From positions 30,893 through 94,892 of the forward strand of contig CAYFQT010000038.1 in assembly GCA_964345445.1 (NCBI GenBank): 64,000 nucleotides of DNA. Direction: 5' to 3'. The notes under the pieces were generated by a model. The model did no database searches. It was not told the DNA's origin and saw nothing but the letters and a program-made list of their open reading frames with translations. Positions within the stretch are counted from its first letter, which is position 1. The number at the start of each line of letters is the position of its first letter. The stretch comes from an uncultured Candidatus Saccharibacteria bacterium (lineage in GTDB: Bacteria > Patescibacteriota > CPR2_A > CAYFQT01). This document shows, piece by piece, positions 37,885 through 64,000 of the stretch. The translations under genes and the position numbers were made by a program.

Positions 37885-37946
37885 AGAGTATCATAAGTGT
37901 CATCGGATATACCTTTGATACTTATTTATAAAGGAGGCATATTAAT

Positions 37947-38288
37947 ATGTGGTGGGCAATTTTAGGATTTGCTTTAGGAATAATTATAGGATTGTTTTTT
38001 ACTTTTTCTATTCCTATACAATATGCTCGATATACAGCAGTAGCTATATTAGCTGCTTTAGATTCTATTTTAGGGGCAGCAAAAGCAGACCTAGAAAATA
38101 GATATTCCAGTCAAATTTTTATCACTGGATTAATATTTAATATGGTTTTGGCAGCTGGAATTACTTTCTTAGGAGATAAATTAGGTTTAGATTTGTATAT
38201 TGCTGTGGTTGTAGCATTTACATTTAGAATGCTTTTGAATATTGGCAAAATCCGCCGTCATATTTTAGAGAGATTTAGAAAGAGATAA
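37947..38288 (+). CDS. sbp: small basic protein Sbp (DUF1290)
   Basis: IP..Y..Y...LAALD...G.....FN..LA..FLG..LG.DLY....F..R...NI..IRR pattern matches B. subtilis Sbp, which sits between divIB and ftsA. Confidence 0.7.
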   Translation: MWWAILGFALGIIIGLFFTFSIPIQYARYTAVAILAALDSILGAAKADLENRYSSQIFITGLIFNMVLAAGITFLGDKLGLDLYIAVVVAFTFRMLLNIGKIRRHILERFRKR

Positions 38289-38325
38289 AAAATAATTTGT
38301 ATTTTAAAATTTTTATATTGATAGT

Positions 38326-38414
38326 ATAGTTTTGCGAAGTAATGAAGAAGTAATGAAGGAGTACATAAGTATTATTAATTTTGAATGTTCTTTTAATTTA
38401 CTTCGCAAAACTAT
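38326..38414. repeat. 17-bp perfect inverted repeat (ATAGTTTTGCGAAGTAA / TTACTTCGCAAAACTAT) around a 55-nt loop
   Basis: The loop itself contains the direct repeat GAAGTAATGAAG x2. Confidence 0.7.
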
Positions 38415-38448
38415 CATTGTCCGACATATTTTCAAATGTAAAATAACA

Positions 38449-38478
38449 CCAGCAGAACCCCTTCCCTGCTGGTTTTTT
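38449..38478 (+). terminator. Rho-independent terminator closing the dcw operon
   Basis: CCAGCAG-AACCCCTTCC-CTGCTGG followed by TTTTTT. Confidence 0.6.
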
Positions 38479-38741
38479 ACACTAATTAAATATATTTTAT
38501 CTTAGAATTACTCTGATAAAATAATAAGACTTTTAGTAATAGAGTTTGCCAAAATTGGTGACTTTTTTAAAAAAAATTAAATTCTATCCCCTATTATGAT
38601 GAAACTTAGTATTTTTTTACTCCAGATCTCTATATTGCTGTTATATTGCTGTAGTGAGGGATTTTAATATAGTTCAGCAATAGCAATAATGTAGATTATT
38701 GAAGTGAAGGTGTTTGATTTTTAAAAAAATAATAAAAGATT

Positions 38742-39188
38742 TTAGTAGTTCACTTCCCTATCTTTCATAATCTTTCCGAAAGTCTCTTTTATTTCTTCAA
38801 AATGTTTTTCTTTTTCTTCCTTAGAATCATTTACACTATCTTTATAAAAATATACCAAAGCCAGACTTTCAGGATTGGAAGTTTCTCCTCCAAAATCTTC
38901 TGCTTTGCCGATTTCTAAAATATGATTTCCAAATTCTATCATATCTGCTTCGTGGTCAGATAGTTCTGTTATTTCATCTTGTTCAAATAATTCCATTTTT
39001 TCTATAATTTCTTCTGATTGCCAATCTACCTCTTGATTTTTTTCATAAGCCAAAGCGGAGATGAATTTCTTCAGTTCCTCAACTTCTCCTTTAATAATAA
39101 TTCTATTAAATTGTTCATCAATTTCTGGTTCTATTTCTATTTCTTCAGTTGGGTCATATTCAGAAGTAGATCCTAAATCCCCAAGCAT
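38742..39188 (-). CDS. highly acidic hypothetical protein (possible DNA-mimic-like)
   Basis: 148 aa, about 30% D/E, downstream (same strand) of the coupling-protein-like ATPase. Confidence 0.45.
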   Translation of the reverse strand: MLGDLGSTSEYDPTEEIEIEPEIDEQFNRIIIKGEVEELKKFISALAYEKNQEVDWQSEEIIEKMELFEQDEITELSDHEADMIEFGNHILEIGKAEDFGGETSNPESLALVYFYKDSVNDSKEEKEKHFEEIKETFGKIMKDREVNY

Positions 39189-39278
39189 TTTTTCCTCTCT
39201 TATTGAAGCCTAATTACATAGACTTCTCCTTTTTCGATAAAATACTTAAAGCATTTTATCAAGTAAAATGATTTAAAA

Positions 39279-39314
39279 AGCAGCTTCAATACATAAAAAG
39301 CTGCTCATTTTTTG
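39279..39314. terminator. bidirectional hairpin terminator
   Basis: AGCAGCTT-CAATACATAAA-AAGCTGCT with T-runs on both strands. Confidence 0.45.
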
Positions 39315-39629
39315 AGTTTTTTGTATAATTTTAATTTTTTTAGAAATTTTATTTTTGTTTTCATTTTTGTATAACGCAGATTAACACTGATATTATAATG
39401 TAGATTATTTTGACGCTGATTTACGCGGATATATATTATAATCGCTGAGTGCCGATTAATCGGCAGGCCCGACTGCAACGCTATGCTTGCATTAGCGGGC
39501 AGGCTACATCTTCAACATCTTGAACAAGTGAGCGGAGCGAACAATATAGCAATTTGAACATTTTATAATTATTTGTGTTTAATTTGTGCATTAAATTCGT
39601 GTTTAATTTGAGAAAGATTCCTGCTTTTT

Positions 39630-42482
39630 TCAACCAGAGTCTGATCTTCCTTTGGACGAAATTTTTACCTCTTCTCCTTCTTTCAACTCATGTGTTTTAC
39701 TTTTTTCTTTTTGTTCTTTTTCTTCAGTTACTGAGTTTTGGGTCTTTTCTTTTGAAGATGAAAGAGTATCAGAAGGTTCTGTGGGTTTATGTGATATCTT
39801 AATTTCTTCTTTTTCTTTTATTGGCCTATGATGTATTATAGAAGGCTTTGCTTCTTTTTTTTCTTCAGCTATTTCTTCTTGAGGTTTTTCTTTTACTTTT
39901 ATACCTTCTTCTTGAGTAACTTCTTCTAAAATATCTTCTGCAGTTATTCTTACCTCTGGGTATTTTTCTACTCTAATAGTTTCTCTGGGTCTTTTTTCTT
40001 TAAATTTCTGAGGTTGAGTTTCTTCTTCGTTTTCCTCTTCTGTTTCTTCTATCCCTGCCCAACGAGCAATTTTTTCTTCTACTACATTTTTTGGGGTGCT
40101 ATATCTTTCTTGTGATAAAAGAATAACCTTTTCTTTATTTTTATTTTCCCCTTTGAGTGGAGGTAAAGTTTGAGCAGAAAAAGCAGGAGAAGTTACCCCA
40201 TTAATAGCAAGTTTTAAATAAATATTATATTTATCCAAATTTACTATATCAGTTTCATCAAAGACTGGGGCTACTTCTTTGGCTAAGAATGTTGCATCTG
40301 CTGCGCCTACTCTAAAGGAAATTAATGTTCCAATATTGCCAAAAACAGCATCACGAACTACTTCAGGCATTTGGGCTATATATTGGTTAGCTACTATTAA
40401 ATTTAATCCATATTTTCTTGCTTCAGATAATATTTTGGCAAATGATTCAGTAGCAAAGTTTTGAAACTCATCAACATATAGATAAAAATCTTTTCTCTGT
40501 TTTTCTGGGATGTCTACTCGACTCATAGCTGCTAACTGGAGTTTAGTAATCATCATTGCTCCTAAAAGAGAAGAATTGTCTTCCCCTATAGTTCCTTGAG
40601 CTAATTTGATTAATAATATTTTTCCTGAATCAATAACTTCTCGCATATCGATAGTGCTTTTAGGCTGCCCTATAATGTTTCTTATTGTTGCCGAAGATAT
40701 AAACTGCCCTACTTTGTTTTGAATTGGAGAAATTGCTTCTGTTACTAAACGAGGATTTGATTGATATCCAGGAAACTCTTGAGTCCAAAATCTTTTTACT
40801 TCTATATCGGTAATTTTCTTAACCACTTTTTTTCTAAATTTTTTATCAGTAAGCATTCGATTTACTGATAACATTGTAGAATTAGGATAATCTAACAAAG
40901 CTAATAAAGTATTTCTTAAAATATGTTCTAATCTAGGACCCCAGGTGAAAGCCCAGATTTTTTGAAAAATGGAAATTAATCCTGAACATATCAACCCTTT
41001 ATAGTCAGGGTCCACAGCTTCTAGTGGATTGAAAGCAATAGGATATTCTCGATCAGAAGGATCAAAGATAATTACATCATTTATTCTTTCAGAGGGAATG
41101 AAATTTAATATATCGTCAATTAGGTCTCCATGAGGGTCCACTACTCCTACTCCTTTTCCTGCTCGGATATCAGAAATAGCCATATTTCTCAACATATTAG
41201 TCTTGCCCATCCCAGTTTTACCAATTAAATACATATGTTTTCTTCTGTCATCAGTTTTTATTCCAAATTTTTGTCTTATATGTCTAAAGTTTGTCTCGGC
41301 AAATAAAGTTAGTTCGCTAGATGGAATAACTTTTTCTTCAATTGGTAAGTTATCAGGAGGTTCTCCTTTTTTAGATTTTGTCCAAGCGATTGTGGGAGTT
41401 TCTACTCCTATAGTTGGAAGATGAAATATTGAAGCTAATTCTTCAGTATTTAAAACAAAGCCAGAGTCGGAAAACAAACGTGCTTTATAGTCTTGAAGAA
41501 AATTTTCACCTTCATAAGTTTTGTCTGATTTGAAACCATTTAGGTTAGCGGTTGAAAATTGTTTAAATGTTCCAATAAGAGATTGAAGATGAGGATTTAC
41601 AATTTGTCCTTTCTTGCAAACATATGCTGCTCTTATTTTTGTATCAAAACCAAGTTTGGATACTTTTTCCTCAATAGCCGAAAGCTGAGTCTCTTGAGCA
41701 GATGAGAGTTGAGGAGGTCCGGAGGCACTTTCTTCAGTGGTTCCTGGTGTAATCAAAGAAGTAATTTGTCCTAAAACTTTAGCTAAAAATCCAAAAGCTG
41801 TTCCTATGCCAAAAGCTTCTGGGTTTCCACCAGCTTTTACTATGTCTATATAAGAAAGACCTTTTTTTTGCCATTCTTCCCCTGAAGGACGAACGAGTAT
41901 TTGAATCCAAATTTGTTCATTATTTTCTTTTAATTTTCCTAAAACCCCAGTGATTCCTGCCAGAGGATCTACTTCGAAATCAGGAAAGGTTTTAATAGGA
42001 AAAAAATCTAATTTGTTTAAGAGAAGTTGAGTGCCCATAATTTGTTTTTCTTTTAAATCAATCTCAGTGTAATCAGGTACTTTTTCAATTTCTACTTCAG
42101 GATATTGGGCATAAATTTGTCCTTCCACAAAATCTCTTAGATGTTCTGGAACCCAAATAAAAAATCCAATTTTTCCATTTGTTGAAGCAATTTCAAAACT
42201 AATGTGTTCTTGTAATGTTCCTTCCAGAAATCTTTTTTTAGTAGGTTTATAAATTCCATGTAGAGAAGCAAACATCATTTCTGCTGCAGTAGGTCCTTTT
42301 TCATTTTCTTTTGGAATATACAAAGATAAAAGAACGTATTTTTGTTGAGAAACCCAGTTTAATTTTCTACGGCTTAAAAAAGACAAAAATAAAAGTAGAG
42401 GTACTAGAAACCATATACCCCAAAATAAAAATTTACCAGTTTGTGGTAATATTTGGCTTAAAATTTTAAATAAGCCTTCCAT
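39630..42482 (-). CDS. membrane-anchored P-loop NTPase of the type IV coupling protein (TraD/TraG/VirD4; FtsK-HerA superfamily) type, with long Glu/Lys-rich C-terminal tail
   Basis: N-terminal TM (FLFWGIWFLVPLLLFLSFL), Walker A GKTGMGKT, Walker B YLYVDEFQNF about 240 aa later, ANQYIAQ block, 220-aa low-complexity EK-rich tail. Confidence 0.7.
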   Translation of the reverse strand: MEGLFKILSQILPQTGKFLFWGIWFLVPLLLFLSFLSRRKLNWVSQQKYVLLSLYIPKENEKGPTAAEMMFASLHGIYKPTKKRFLEGTLQEHISFEIASTNGKIGFFIWVPEHLRDFVEGQIYAQYPEVEIEKVPDYTEIDLKEKQIMGTQLLLNKLDFFPIKTFPDFEVDPLAGITGVLGKLKENNEQIWIQILVRPSGEEWQKKGLSYIDIVKAGGNPEAFGIGTAFGFLAKVLGQITSLITPGTTEESASGPPQLSSAQETQLSAIEEKVSKLGFDTKIRAAYVCKKGQIVNPHLQSLIGTFKQFSTANLNGFKSDKTYEGENFLQDYKARLFSDSGFVLNTEELASIFHLPTIGVETPTIAWTKSKKGEPPDNLPIEEKVIPSSELTLFAETNFRHIRQKFGIKTDDRRKHMYLIGKTGMGKTNMLRNMAISDIRAGKGVGVVDPHGDLIDDILNFIPSERINDVIIFDPSDREYPIAFNPLEAVDPDYKGLICSGLISIFQKIWAFTWGPRLEHILRNTLLALLDYPNSTMLSVNRMLTDKKFRKKVVKKITDIEVKRFWTQEFPGYQSNPRLVTEAISPIQNKVGQFISSATIRNIIGQPKSTIDMREVIDSGKILLIKLAQGTIGEDNSSLLGAMMITKLQLAAMSRVDIPEKQRKDFYLYVDEFQNFATESFAKILSEARKYGLNLIVANQYIAQMPEVVRDAVFGNIGTLISFRVGAADATFLAKEVAPVFDETDIVNLDKYNIYLKLAINGVTSPAFSAQTLPPLKGENKNKEKVILLSQERYSTPKNVVEEKIARWAGIEETEEENEEETQPQKFKEKRPRETIRVEKYPEVRITAEDILEEVTQEEGIKVKEKPQEEIAEEKKEAKPSIIHHRPIKEKEEIKISHKPTEPSDTLSSSKEKTQNSVTEEKEQKEKSKTHELKEGEEVKISSKGRSDSG

Positions 42483-60462: not shown

Positions 60463-60779
60463 TTAAATCTCCAGAGAAATAGATAATAATTACTAATTAA
60501 ATTTTACCATTCTAATTGAATAATTACAATAAAAAATATAATAATAGATTATTTAATTATAATTCATTTAATTTTTCTAAAACAGGCAAAGAGATATCAA
60601 TTAGGTCTTTAGTGTCGCTTCTGTTTAATTCTGCTAAGCTACCTTTTGGTTTACAAAGAAATAAAAGTTCTATTATAGCTCTATAAAGTTCTGGAGTTAT
60701 GATTTTGTTGTCTTTTAATTCCTCAGCTATATTTATTGGATCTCTTTCTTTAGATTGAGGTAATTTTTTATTTTGTATT

Positions 60780-61136
60780 TCACCTAATCTTTGGGTAATT
60801 TTTTTTTCTTATTATTCCCACAGTCAAACAAACATCTCCTTTAGTTTGTTTTTTAAGCTCTTCTTTTTGAGCTTCTGCCTTTTTTTCGTCTTTTATTTTC
60901 ATTTTTTCTACCGAGTCTTTTGCCTTTTTCAAACTTCTTTTAAATTCAAATAAATAACTAATTTTCCCACTTTGTAAACTGGGCAAAATGGAAATGAAAA
61001 ACAAAAGAACGATTAAAAATAAAGAATATTTATCCAAGTTGATTGTATCAGGATAAAATAGATTTAAAATTAAAATTGCTAAAATTAATAATGTATAAAA
61101 ATAAATAAATCTAATTTTTTTCAAAAAACTAATCAT
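60780..61136 (-). CDS. hypothetical 2-TM membrane protein; reading frame possibly continues to 60557 after a -1 shift at an A9 tract
   Basis: 118-aa ORF ends 25 nt after an A9 homopolymer (60799-60807 on plus as T9). The -1 frame stays open for about 83 more codons. Confidence 0.4.
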   Translation of the reverse strand: MISFLKKIRFIYFYTLLILAILILNLFYPDTINLDKYSLFLIVLLFFISILPSLQSGKISYLFEFKRSLKKAKDSVEKMKIKDEKKAEAQKEELKKQTKGDVCLTVGIIRKKNYPKIR

Positions 61137-61188
61137 AATTTCCCCTATTAAATTTTGATTTTTTAACTTTGAATTTTAAACTTTTATA

Positions 61189-62883
61189 TTACCATCCACT
61201 TCCTCCTCCTCCACCAAATCCGCCGCCGGAGAATCCGCCTCCTCCAAATCCACTTCCTCCAGAAGGTGCAGATCTAAAAGTACTTCCTATACCTTTGGAC
61301 ATACCATTTAGAGAGCTAGCAAAACGACTGGCTGAAAAAGCACCAACATAACTTCCTGAATACCAATCAGGAGGAGTTTTGTAGATATCTTTAAATTTTC
61401 CAGCCCAAATCTCAGCCACACCAAAAACCATTGCATAGGGCAGAAGTTTTTCAAATATCTTTTCTTTTTCGGCAAATTCCATTCTATATCTTTCAGCAGT
61501 TTTAATATATTCTTTCAAACCCAAGGCATGTTCATATGCCAAAGTTCCTGCTTTAGTCCGTCTGGGCATAAAGAAAGAAAAAATAATAATTATCAAAGCA
61601 GAAATCCACATAGATATCACAGCAGTAAAACTGAAAATATTCGCTATAAAAAATATAAAGACAAAGCCCAAAATACCAAAAGCTATACCTACTCCTAAAT
61701 AAATACCTCTTATTTTATCAGGACTAATTTTAAAATAGTTAAGTAATACTACCTCTTGATAAAGATATTTTTTAATTTTGGGCAAGTGAGTATAAAATTT
61801 TTCTTTCAAATCAGAAAGTTTACTTTCATCTTTAGAATAGCCAAAAACCCCTCTTAAAATTTCTTTTTCATGTTCTTTTAAAGATTTATCATCCTTAAAT
61901 TCTTTATTTTTAATAAATTTATAGTCTTTGCCTTTAAAAATTAATCCCTTGCCTTCAATCTCCTCAATTTTTAAATATCCTCTCACTGCTAAATCAATTA
62001 CTGTCGCTGAAATATCTTTCATATCTGCTCTTTGATCAATTAGAATCCCTAACTCCCCGGCTGTTATATTGTCTGGAGGTTCATATTGGGCAATAATGGT
62101 TTTTCTCCCCTCAGGTTCTCTGCCTCTGGTCCACCAGAGATAAAACAAAACAAAAAATACTAAAAAGGGAATAGCCACAGCCCAGTTATCTTGAGAAAAC
62201 CAGAAGATTTGTTGAGATGTAGAAGGTTTTTGGACAATTTCTTTTGGCCAGCCGGCAACAATTGTCAAATATACCGTTGATTGATAATCTATTTGTCCAT
62301 CTTTGATTTCATAGGTTAAATCTTGGCTTTTTGAACCATATTCTCCTGTATATCCTTCTGCTTGCAATTTGTCTTTGGGAATATTTTCCGGAAAATAAAC
62401 AGTAGCTGAGCAATTTTCAATAGGCATATCCAATTGAGTTCCTGTAACATTCCAATATAATTCATCATGATCAGAAAAATAATTTATAGCTCTTTGTACT
62501 TTATAGGTGATTACATAAGTATTAAGTCCAGAAATTGTCACATCTGGATCACCTATTTTGATTTTTATATTTCTTCCAGACCTGGAAGTCTCATATTTCC
62601 ATTCTTTTCCATTCTCGTCAGTTATGGAAATTAATTCAAATTTCAATTTTAAATTATTTCCATATTTATCTTTGTATTTAAGGGGGATTTCCCGGTTTAT
62701 TCCGTGCTTGCCATGTGGAACATCAACTTCTATTTTTTCTTTGATATCAATTGAAGCATCTTTATTTATAGTAATATCAGAATGAAAATTCTCAATTACA
62801 AACTCTGACTGCGCCCAAGCAAAAATATAGAGAACAAAAACTAATATTACTGTTCCAAAAATTAATCCAATTTTCTTTTTCAT
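61189..62883 (-). CDS. DUF2207-family membrane protein with C-terminal Gly-rich tail
   Basis: Signal/TM, about 230-aa extracytoplasmic domain, 3-4 TM helices, tail GSGFGGGGFSGGGFGGGGGSGW. Confidence 0.7.
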   Translation of the reverse strand: MKKKIGLIFGTVILVFVLYIFAWAQSEFVIENFHSDITINKDASIDIKEKIEVDVPHGKHGINREIPLKYKDKYGNNLKLKFELISITDENGKEWKYETSRSGRNIKIKIGDPDVTISGLNTYVITYKVQRAINYFSDHDELYWNVTGTQLDMPIENCSATVYFPENIPKDKLQAEGYTGEYGSKSQDLTYEIKDGQIDYQSTVYLTIVAGWPKEIVQKPSTSQQIFWFSQDNWAVAIPFLVFFVLFYLWWTRGREPEGRKTIIAQYEPPDNITAGELGILIDQRADMKDISATVIDLAVRGYLKIEEIEGKGLIFKGKDYKFIKNKEFKDDKSLKEHEKEILRGVFGYSKDESKLSDLKEKFYTHLPKIKKYLYQEVVLLNYFKISPDKIRGIYLGVGIAFGILGFVFIFFIANIFSFTAVISMWISALIIIIFSFFMPRRTKAGTLAYEHALGLKEYIKTAERYRMEFAEKEKIFEKLLPYAMVFGVAEIWAGKFKDIYKTPPDWYSGSYVGAFSASRFASSLNGMSKGIGSTFRSAPSGGSGFGGGGFSGGGFGGGGGSGW

Positions 62884-62918
62884 AAAAACCCACTCATTTT
62901 TAAATAAATCTATTTACC

Positions 62919-62932
62919 TATTCGCGCGAATA
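62919..62932. promoter_or_regulatory. 14-bp perfect palindrome TATTCGCGCGAATA (candidate operator)
   Basis: Lies between the ArsR gene and the DUF2207 gene start. A second copy (ATTCGCGCGAAT) sits at 63294-63305 upstream of the ArsR gene. Confidence 0.5.
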
Positions 62933-62962
62933 AGTCTATAGAATATCTTTATAAATTAATAA

Positions 62963-63226
62963 TTAAATCATGCTCATAATTTTATATTCGGGACTGTTTT
63001 TCTTAAGATCGGATAAATAATATAGAACTTTGTTAGAAACTTGTCTATGAGAAATCAGCCCTAAAGCATCTAATCGTTGCAGGTGTTTAGAAGTACTTTT
63101 AAAAGAAAGATTAATTCTATTGCTGATTTCTCCCACAGTCATTTCCCTTTCTGCCCTAAGAATTTTAATAATTTTTAATCTTCTTTCATTCCCTAACACT
63201 TTAAATAAATTAGTTAATTTTTTCAT
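62963..63226 (-). CDS. ArsR/SmtB-family winged-HTH transcriptional regulator
   Basis: LFKVLGNERRLKIIKIL...MTVGEIS...LSFKSTSKHLQRLDALGLI matches HTH_20. Confidence 0.75.
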   Translation of the reverse strand: MKKLTNLFKVLGNERRLKIIKILRAEREMTVGEISNRINLSFKSTSKHLQRLDALGLISHRQVSNKVLYYLSDLKKNSPEYKIMSMI

Positions 63227-63292
63227 AATTTATCCTTTTTTCTATTTTTCTATATTCCCAGCACAGAATATCACAATTTATAACTATTCGCA

Positions 63293-63306
63293 AATTCGCG
63301 CGAATA
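63293..63306. promoter_or_regulatory. second copy of the TTCGCGCGAA palindrome
   Basis: AATTCGCGCGAATA preceded by a partial half-site TATTCGC; in the ArsR promoter region. Confidence 0.5.
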
Positions 63307-63405
63307 CGTCCAAGGGATTTTAGAAGAAATATCTCTTTTTATTATTTTCTTTCTTCTTTCTTAGAAAAAATAAAAATATAAATAATTTCTAAAATTCCTA
63401 AAGTG

Positions 63406-63561
63406 TTAAAGATAAGAAGAATAATATACCAAACTACAAGCCGCTTTCCACAAGGCTATTCCCTTCCAGACCAGAGACCAAAAAGTTGCTATGATTATAA
63501 AAGCAACAAAAAATGGATTTTTAAAAATTGGATATGTATTTATAAAAATCTCTATATCCAT
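63406..63561 (-). CDS. possible 51-aa small membrane protein (MDIEIFINTYPIF...)
   Basis: ATG-initiated ORF below the 60-aa track cutoff with one clear TM helix. Competes with the plus-strand ORF 63403..63585, which looks non-protein-like. Confidence 0.25.
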   Translation of the reverse strand: MDIEIFINTYPIFKNPFFVAFIIIATFWSLVWKGIALWKAACSLVYYSSYL

Positions 63562-63649
63562 TTTATTTTCCTTAGATTAAATTAGCAATTTTATTTTCTG
63601 TATAAATTATACCCTAAAATTATTTATATACAAAATAGTTGTTTTTTGT

Positions 63650-63694
63650 TTTAAAAAAACAACAACACCCGGTGTTGTGTCAACACCGGGTGTT
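63650..63694 (-). terminator. Rho-independent terminator for the TPR gene
   Basis: ACACCCGGTGTTG-ACA-CAACACCGGGTGT followed (minus strand) by TTGTTGTTTTTTT. Confidence 0.6.
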
Positions 63695-63746
63695 TATTTA
63701 AACTAATTCCTTATTCCTTATAACTTATCCCTAATAACTAATAACT

Positions 63747-64000
63747 TTACTCTTCTCCTACTTTCTCCCCCCCTATTTCTTGTTCTTCCACAGGTGGTCT
63801 TCCTTCTAAAAATTCCTCTTCTTCGGCTTCTATAGCAATTCCTTTTTCTAATTTATCAATTTCCTCCAGTTGTTTTTTAGCGTCTTCATTTTCTGGTTGT
63901 AAGGCAAGCACTTTATCAAAATATTTCTTGGATTTTGAATAATCTTTTTTTGCTCTATAAACTAACCCTAGATTGAATTGAGGATCAGCAAGATCATCTT
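63747..64000 (-). CDS. C-terminal part of a TPR-repeat protein (continues beyond window)
   Basis: Minus-strand frame open to the window edge: ...DDLADPQFNLGLVYRAKKDYSKSKKYFDKVLALQPENEDAKKQLEEIDKL...EE*; TPR-like helices. Confidence 0.55.
   Translation of the reverse strand, partial: DDLADPQFNLGLVYRAKKDYSKSKKYFDKVLALQPENEDAKKQLEEIDKLEKGIAIEAEEEEFLEGRPPVEEQEIGGEKVGEE

Follow-up and report, generated by a model that had tools for sequence, protein, structure and literature searches.

Short members of the ArsR family that lack metal sites and control non-metal genes include HlyU, NolR and PagR. HlyU senses redox state through cysteine and derepresses or activates virulence genes in Vibrio, and NolR recognises an asymmetric, AT-rich site. 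In Bacillus subtilis, the ArsR-family autorepressor SdpR is encoded directly 5' of the gene for the membrane immunity protein SdpI, which is under its control. Little is known of gene regulation in the Patescibacteria (CPR), which are mostly uncultured and have small genomes with few transcription factors. An imperfect 12-2-12 inverted repeat at or near a promoter is the hallmark of an ArsR/SmtB operator, and the regulators concerned are often autorepressors (PMC8790569). In the SmtB/CzrA/AztR type, a small, presumably dimeric winged-helix protein regulates its own gene through a 12-2-12 operator that lies at or overlaps the promoter and is sometimes present in two copies (PMC8790569).

The locus described here lies in a 64-kb stretch of DNA from the Patescibacteria (the window, about 30% G+C). 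It resembles the SmtB/CzrA/AztR type in the layout of its operators and in the size, form and fold of its regulator, but the operator is ATTCG-YR-CGAAT at its centre rather than TGAACA-nn-TGTTCA, the neighbours of the regulator gene, which has an operator on either side, are not metal-resistance genes, and the protein lacks the alpha3, alpha3N and alpha5 ligands and has no cysteine. HlyU is the best match in both sequence and structure (4k2e; E 3.3e-9, 34% identity, TM 0.78). However, neither HlyU nor NolR has the present operator or its taxonomic range, and the present protein, at 87 aa, is shorter and falls in a clade found across the CPR. As in SdpR-SdpI, the regulator gene stands directly 5' of a membrane protein gene and there is weak profile similarity between the regulators, but this pairing is not conserved in the clade.

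Our reading of the locus, which we consider probable on the basis of sequence comparison, is that two palindromes flanking the regulator gene are operators of the ArsR/SmtB-type protein that it encodes, that this protein negatively autoregulates its gene and controls the adjacent gene for a DUF2207 membrane protein, and that it is a CPR-wide regulator with a modest regulon. No description of the motif or the regulator was found in the literature on Patescibacteria, Saccharibacteria and CPR, which is weak evidence of novelty since coverage of the journals was incomplete.

Organisation of the locus

The features of the locus are as follows.

60780-61136, minus strand: 118-aa ORF that includes hydrophobic segments, separated by 52 nt from the 3' end of the DUF2207 gene (from the ORF list)
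61189-62883, minus strand: gene for a DUF2207 membrane protein of 564 aa (ORF, ATG 62883; Pfam DUF2207 and DUF2207_C)
62911-62940, minus strand: putative operator site 1, with core TATTCGCGCGAATA at 62919-62932 and a degenerate outer arm, GTAAATA
62963-63226, minus strand: gene for an ArsR/SmtB-family regulator of 87 aa (ORF; start ATG 63226, stop codon 62963)
63265-63293, minus strand: predicted regulator promoter, with a -35-like TTGCGA at 63288-63293, a 17-nt spacer and an extended -10 box, TGaTATTCT, at 63265-63273
63285-63314, minus strand: putative operator site 2, with core ATTCGCGCGAAT at 63294-63305 and outer arm GCGAATA at 63285-63291
63406-63561, minus strand: gene for a 51-aa DUF5652 membrane peptide (Pfam), directly 5' of the regulator's operator

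The assignment of the two main genes to the ArsR family and to DUF2207, made in the initial annotation from the sequence alone, agrees with their Pfam matches. The 118-aa ORF matched no Pfam family. The terminator scan found no terminator-like site between it and the DUF2207 gene, with which it may be co-transcribed. In L088, the closest syntenic relative, an ORF of 103 aa takes the corresponding position. The DUF2207 protein carries a glycine-rich C-terminal tail, SGGSGFGGGGFSGGGFGGGGGSGW (61189-61260, minus strand). A strong terminator-like hairpin, with a 14-bp stem followed by a T-run, lies 5' of the DUF5652 gene (63664-63694, minus strand) and probably marks the upstream limit of the transcription unit. 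On the scale of the window, the long ORFs up to 37884 are all on the plus strand and those from 38742 onward all on the minus strand, and cumulative GC skew reaches its maximum at about 40 kb; the convergent genes (37900-39650) and the GC-skew maximum together suggest that the window contains a replication terminus.

Position and rarity of the palindromes

TTCGCGCGAA has two exact matches in the window, 62921-62930 and 63295-63304. They bracket the regulator gene, and both lie upstream of gene starts. Site 1 is placed in the 79-nt gap between the stop codon of the regulator gene and the start codon of the DUF2207 gene, whose ATG is 47 nt past the start of TTCG in the site. The perfect 14-bp palindrome that had been noted there (TATTCGCGCGAATA) is present at 62919-62932. 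The second copy, which had been described as lying in the regulator's promoter region with an additional TATTCGC half-site, was likewise located, at 63294-63305 with the half-site at 63285-63291. This half-site is the promoter-proximal outer arm of site 2 read on the plus strand, and together with ATTCGCGCGAAT it lies about 59-80 nt 5' of the regulator ATG (63226).

When one mismatch was allowed, TTCGCGCGAA was still found at the same two places only, against an expectation of 0.18, and only 2 of 100 dinucleotide-preserving shuffles reached two such matches. ATTCGCGCGAAT with up to two mismatches gave just these two places in the window, whereas the looser TTCGNNCGAA with one mismatch was at chance level there, its exact matches being these two alone. 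A 30-nt weight matrix made from 152 homologous sites scored site 1 at 32.8 bits and site 2 at 32.3 bits; the next-best position in the window scored 1.0 bits and the best among 20 shuffled windows 21.5 bits. Neither the word search nor the matrix scan found a further site in the 64 kb. The initial annotation had regarded the palindrome as improbable by chance, unless it should prove to be a frequent word of the genome. Two copies only, in DNA of about 30% G+C, mean that it is not a frequent or restriction-site-like word, and the rarity of the palindrome is upheld.

The regulator protein

By every feature tested, from sequence profiles to the predicted structure, the 87-aa protein belongs to the ArsR/SmtB family. 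It matches Pfam HTH_5 (E 7.9e-10, 38.9 bits against a cutoff of 22) and the NCBIfam model of the ArsR/SmtB family, NF033788 (64.5 bits against a cutoff of 55). The AlphaFold model (pLDDT 92.6) has the topology a1-a2-a3-a4-b1-b2-a5, with helices at residues 2-11, 14-26, 31-38, 42-54 and 79-86 and a hairpin at 58-71; a4 is the recognition helix (LSFKSTSKHL). Nearly all of the top 50 PDB matches of the model in Foldseek are ArsR/SmtB proteins, the best with TM scores of about 0.8 (HlyU, CzrA, CadC, NolR and SmtB), and the nearest solved relatives by sequence in phmmer are HlyU, CzrA, SmtB and NolR, with E values of 1e-5 to 1e-8 to proteins of the SmtB/CzrA/AztR type.

It had been proposed that a metal or redox effector might be recognised from sensing-site residues, and here the sequence points the other way. 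The regulator contains no cysteine, lacks the alpha3, alpha3N and alpha5 sets of metal ligands, and thus has no known ArsR/SmtB sensory site. Cysteine is also absent from 72 of 80 relatives, the sole invariant histidine (H48) lies inside the recognition helix, and a5 is short, with no pattern of histidine or glutamate. With neither cysteine nor alpha3 or alpha5 ligands, the protein is unlikely to sense metals or thiol redox state, and sensors of the alpha3, alpha3N, alpha5 and BigR/SqrR types were rejected as models for it. We infer from these residues that a metal signal is lacking.

A regulator with no sensory site of its own, paired in the window's lineage with a membrane protein, recalls SdpR, and the SdpR autorepressor subfamily (NF033789) is indeed its second-best NCBIfam match (E 3.9e-12). 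In a circuit of that kind DUF2207 would sense an envelope signal and sequester the regulator at the membrane, so that both genes would be derepressed. We think this very unlikely. The match to NF033789 scores 45.9 bits, far under the cutoff of 100, and the partner is a DUF2207 protein and not a member of the SdpI family. Elsewhere in the regulator's family the neighbours are mostly soluble housekeeping enzymes and tRNAs, so membrane sequestration cannot be the general mechanism, and DUF2207 homologs occur elsewhere without the regulator.

Architecture of the putative operator

Read in the orientation of the gene, the sites have the consensus aTt.nC-TwATTCG-YR-CGAATwA-GnGAATa, or in a second rendering aTt.nC-T.ATTCG-YR-CGAAT.a-GcgAATa. 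The full site is about 26-30 bp long, with a dyad extending about 12-14 bp to each side of the central YR dinucleotide and outer arms that are semi-conserved. The extra half-site of the initial annotation is therefore real, being the promoter-proximal outer arm of a 12-2-12-type operator found throughout the family, and in the window this 12-2-12 layout is present at a predicted promoter. The inner half-sites are 7 bp apart from centre to centre, which is unusually close for a single winged-helix dimer.

The outer arms differ between genomes, yet they tend to remain complementary to each other. Up to about 14 bp outside the core their complementarity is higher than in a shuffle between loci, and it is 0.56 within a site compared with 0.50 between sites of the same locus (p = 8e-4). 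At three loci (L045, L084 and L087) the sites are perfect palindromes of 40-52 bp. These features, together with the absence of the whole module from L088, could be taken to mean that the palindromes act by their structure, as cruciforms or RNA hairpins, and are REP-like repeats, ends of mobile elements, processing sites or terminators. This is highly improbable in our view. The covariation of the arms is mostly common to the different sites of one genome, and such near-equal complementarity across the sites of a locus means that the symmetry is mostly genome-specific, as expected for a double-stranded operator; the small site-specific component could come from quasi-palindrome correction. Pairing as RNA would be expected to favour G:T wobbles, but the arm mismatches comprise 94 G:T and 128 A:C. 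No Rfam match was found in 60700-63750, and an RNA element was rejected on these two grounds. An intrinsic terminator was also rejected, as neither site was called by the terminator scan, the perfect palindrome has no loop and no T-run follows the sites. The copy number is low, with two sites in 64 kb and about one per 21 kb away from regulators, and the sites are oriented and positioned with respect to gene starts and -10 boxes, so that a REP- or MITE-like repeat was rejected too. No relatives were found in viral contigs, and an origin from a phage or mobile element was dismissed for that reason.

Predicted promoters and the likely sign of regulation

The regulator promoter scores below the threshold of the consensus scan and is predicted from reading of the sequence and from its conservation. 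Its -35-like hexamer, TTGCGA, overlaps the outer arm of site 2, its -10 box begins 34 nt past the start of TTCG, where TGnTATAAT boxes are most often found in the family, and the core palindrome is centred at about -41.5 from the predicted transcription start. Across the family, TGnTATAAT-like boxes start 13, 24 or 33-35 nt past the start of TTCG. In the 13-nt class the extended -10 box is the outer arm itself, as in TGgTAGAAT, and is followed after 6 nt by the ATG, and at some other loci the ATG lies 19-30 nt past the core. A TAnnnT box is found 5-9 nt 5' of the ATG in 41 of 79 regulator genes compared with 8 at control positions, and about half of the regulator genes thus appear to be leaderless.

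A dyad at about -41.5, which results in the window and in many relatives from a -10 box 33-35 nt past the start of TTCG, is the classic position of an activator, and the -35 hexamers at these promoters are poor. The protein might therefore be a class II-like activator working at promoters with weak -35 elements. We judge this unlikely, since the register varies between loci, from sites whose outer arm is the -10 box to sites with the ATG 19-30 nt past the core, and this is incompatible with activation from a fixed position. Moreover, many of the promoters have an extended -10 box (TGn) and should need no activator, and characterised ArsR/SmtB members are, from what is known of the family, nearly all repressors (PMC8790569). 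An operator placed at several registers relative to the promoter makes repression by occlusion the most likely mode of action, and it is from these positions that we infer the sign of regulation.

No DUF2207 promoter could be located confidently in the promoter scan, and the terminator scan found no terminator-like hairpin between the regulator and DUF2207 genes. DNA looping between the two operators was considered and rejected, because the distance between them, 286-604 bp in 55 loci, has no 10-11 bp periodicity and this lack of helical phasing leaves looping unsupported.

Conservation in close relatives and the link to DUF2207

In the ortholog L001, whose regulator shares 85% amino acid identity with that of the window, the regulator-DUF2207 gene pair is kept and both sites are unchanged. 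A 53-nt block comprising site 2 and the predicted promoter is 100% identical, as is a 29-nt block holding site 1, whereas the flanks of both blocks have diverged. L001 also has about 140-170 extra nt between the promoter block and the regulator start codon (L001:1895-2070), a long leader that is absent from the window and in which no Rfam match was found. The pairing with DUF2207 is also seen in L002 and L003.

Among the roughly 100 genes lying 3' of sites in other loci, none encodes DUF2207, and DUF2207 homologs with 45-52% identity in other CPR contigs have neither the regulator nor the motif upstream. L088 has the same response-regulator and Na/Pi-PhoU genes downstream and a DUF2207 gene about 75% identical to that of the window, but it lacks both the regulator gene and the motif. 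Its DUF2207 ortholog is split into ORFs of 105 and 318 aa (L088:3727-4957), either a frameshift or an error of assembly being the probable cause. That L088 and other DUF2207 genes occur without the module indicates that the operator-regulator-operator unit is a lineage-specific addition in front of DUF2207, and a conserved partnership of the two genes was rejected, the pairing being confined to the window's lineage. The earlier proposal that the regulator controls the downstream membrane protein may hold within this lineage, where DUF2207 is the presumed target, but not as a general pairing with DUF2207.

The motif across the Patescibacteria

Among species-representative genomes, 228 relatives were confirmed by a scan, and the best 80 were kept. 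These are almost all Patescibacteria MAGs, plus two labelled Omnitrophota, and their regulator homologs have 39-55% identity. Several of the loci with regulator and motif (L015, CAZVIU010000005.1; L063, CAZSQN010000001.1; L073, OZ246408.1; L013) come from records that bear the titles 'uncultured Gammaproteobacteria' or 'Planctomycetia', and these taxonomic labels look doubtful; one of the records is a chromosome of about 1.0 Mb.

The motif ATTCG-YR-CGAAT, as a matrix site of at least 15 bits, is present 5' of the regulator gene in 75 of the 80 loci. A site of the same minimum score lies just past the regulator stop codon in 68 of 76 loci, and both sides are occupied in 65 of the 76. The exact core TTCG[CT][AG]CGAA has 162 matches in the 543 kb of the 80 loci, and 126 of them adjoin a regulator gene. 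Both the core ATTCG..CGAAT and the recognition helix LSF[KR]STS[KR]HL are invariant in the family. Where the exact core is missing, a variant (TTCTCACGAA or GTCGTGCGAC) takes its place at the corresponding positions. In L032, L033, L043, L048, L055, L082 and L086 the core is asymmetric (TTCTCACGAA/TTCGTGAGAA), with AGAA instead of CGAA in one arm, and L063 has GTCGTGCGAC in the usual position; such variants may reflect co-variation of operator and protein. Homologs more distant than L001, on short metagenome contigs (42-62% identity), have ATTCGCACGAAT or ATTCGTACGAAT upstream and gene neighbours that differ from those in the window, and one of them has a downstream site too, with the same extra half-site.

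The occurrence of the same motif on the flanks of the regulator gene in about 80 other Patescibacteria genomes makes it very probable that the motif is the regulator's binding site. That the palindromes are operators of the encoded ArsR-type protein, which would be autoregulated through them, had been suggested from the window alone; sequence comparison now supports it, through the two-sided motif in CPR loci, the footprint in L001 and the overlap with the promoter.

Motif sites beyond the regulator locus

Metagenome contigs were scanned for the oriented motif alone, independently of the regulator, and 49 of the sites obtained have flanking sequence of 1 kb or more. Thirty-four of these 49 (69%) have no regulator homolog within 1 kb and 11 are directly adjacent to one. 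Motif sites are strongly intergenic: 14% fall within ORFs of 100 aa or longer, compared with a background coverage of 71%. The genes downstream of these sites encode topoisomerase, RF-1, YchF, FolD, MsrA, glycosyltransferases and members of many other unrelated families. In the 80 loci, too, the genes after sites that do not precede the regulator itself are diverse and include those for seryl-tRNA synthetase (3 loci), arginyl-tRNA synthetase (2), SecA (2-3), a PyrK-like protein (3) and ribosome recycling factor. The 145 target proteins fall into 118 clusters, among which no shared function is clear; genes for translation recur, with no enrichment shown.

The number of sites without a regulator gene nearby and the diversity of the downstream genes could also mean that the motif belongs to another DNA-binding protein and that the ArsR-like gene is a frequent member of its regulon. 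This is quite improbable, given that sites are found on either side of the regulator gene in CPR lineages that diverge greatly from one another and that no other gene recurs in this way, the regulator itself forming the largest cluster. The 12-2-12 shape suits the ArsR/SmtB family, and an invariant recognition helix accompanies an invariant core. If the motif is the operator of the ArsR/SmtB-type protein, as we prefer to read it, its position before many unrelated genes means that the regulon extends beyond the locus of the regulator itself. The search for further sites that the initial annotation had suggested thus gave none in the window, but many in front of unrelated genes in other CPR genomes.

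Two recurrent neighbours of the motif are recorded here. A tRNA-Gln(UUG) gene is the next gene past the downstream operator in six Parcubacteria loci (L023, L027, L029, L046, L060 and L076), at about 100-600 nt, and a tRNA-Lys/Glu/Val cluster follows the regulator's downstream operator in L066; with tRNA genes next to it, this operator may also control them. The most recurrent gene 3' of the motif, apart from the regulator, belongs to a Cys-rich, zinc-ribbon-like family beginning MAEEEKKFCQNCQQEF, found in five loci (L064:4304-6082, L092:8218-8712, L095:2399-4114, L104:1-231 and L127:1-369). The one member scanned against Pfam, L092:8218-8712, matched no family.

A model for the switch and its significance

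In the mechanism we propose, the small winged-helix protein would bind both of the palindromes that flank its gene. Site 2 would span -52 to -27 of the regulator's own promoter, and because its outer arm doubles as the -35-like TTGCGA, binding of the protein would silence the gene that encodes it. At site 1 the protein would either block a promoter of the DUF2207 gene or, as a roadblock, stop transcription that reads through from the regulator promoter; as no terminator separates the two genes, the site may serve in either way. In both cases DUF2207 expression would be tied to occupancy by the same protein, and the window would hold the self-regulating core, plus one lineage-specific target, of a CPR-wide regulator. 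Binding by the 87-aa protein is deduced here from the computed position, rarity and conservation of the sites. A clade without known sensory sites, whose operator precedes unrelated genes, is best seen as that of a CPR-wide regulator with a modest regulon.

This would be an ordinary kind of self-regulating switch, which, so far as the searched literature weakly indicates, appears to be undescribed for the Patescibacteria. It would work like a classical ArsR/SmtB autorepressor with 12-2-12 operators, from which it differs in that the protein has no known sensory site, that the operator has a different sequence and is present on each flank of the gene, and that the arrangement is conserved across the Patescibacteria. 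For the window alone the meaning is modest: a DUF2207 envelope protein appears, from its sequence context, to be under a simple autoregulated switch with no obvious metal or redox input.

For the CPR as a whole, the locus provides a candidate pair of factor and operator that is conserved across many lineages and is an easily testable entry to their gene regulation. It yields, besides, a provisional view of CPR promoters, in which extended -10 boxes are found and mRNAs are often leaderless, and a motif that can be used to map regulons in any CPR genome. A broader idea, which is possible but which we hold on balance to be rather doubtful, is that the motif and the sensor-less ArsR-type protein form a Patescibacteria-wide system in which one factor and one operator stand before tens of genes in each genome, and in which the operator-gene-operator module moves and captures downstream genes such as DUF2207. 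If this were true, it would define a global regulon in these reduced and mostly uncultured bacteria for the first time.
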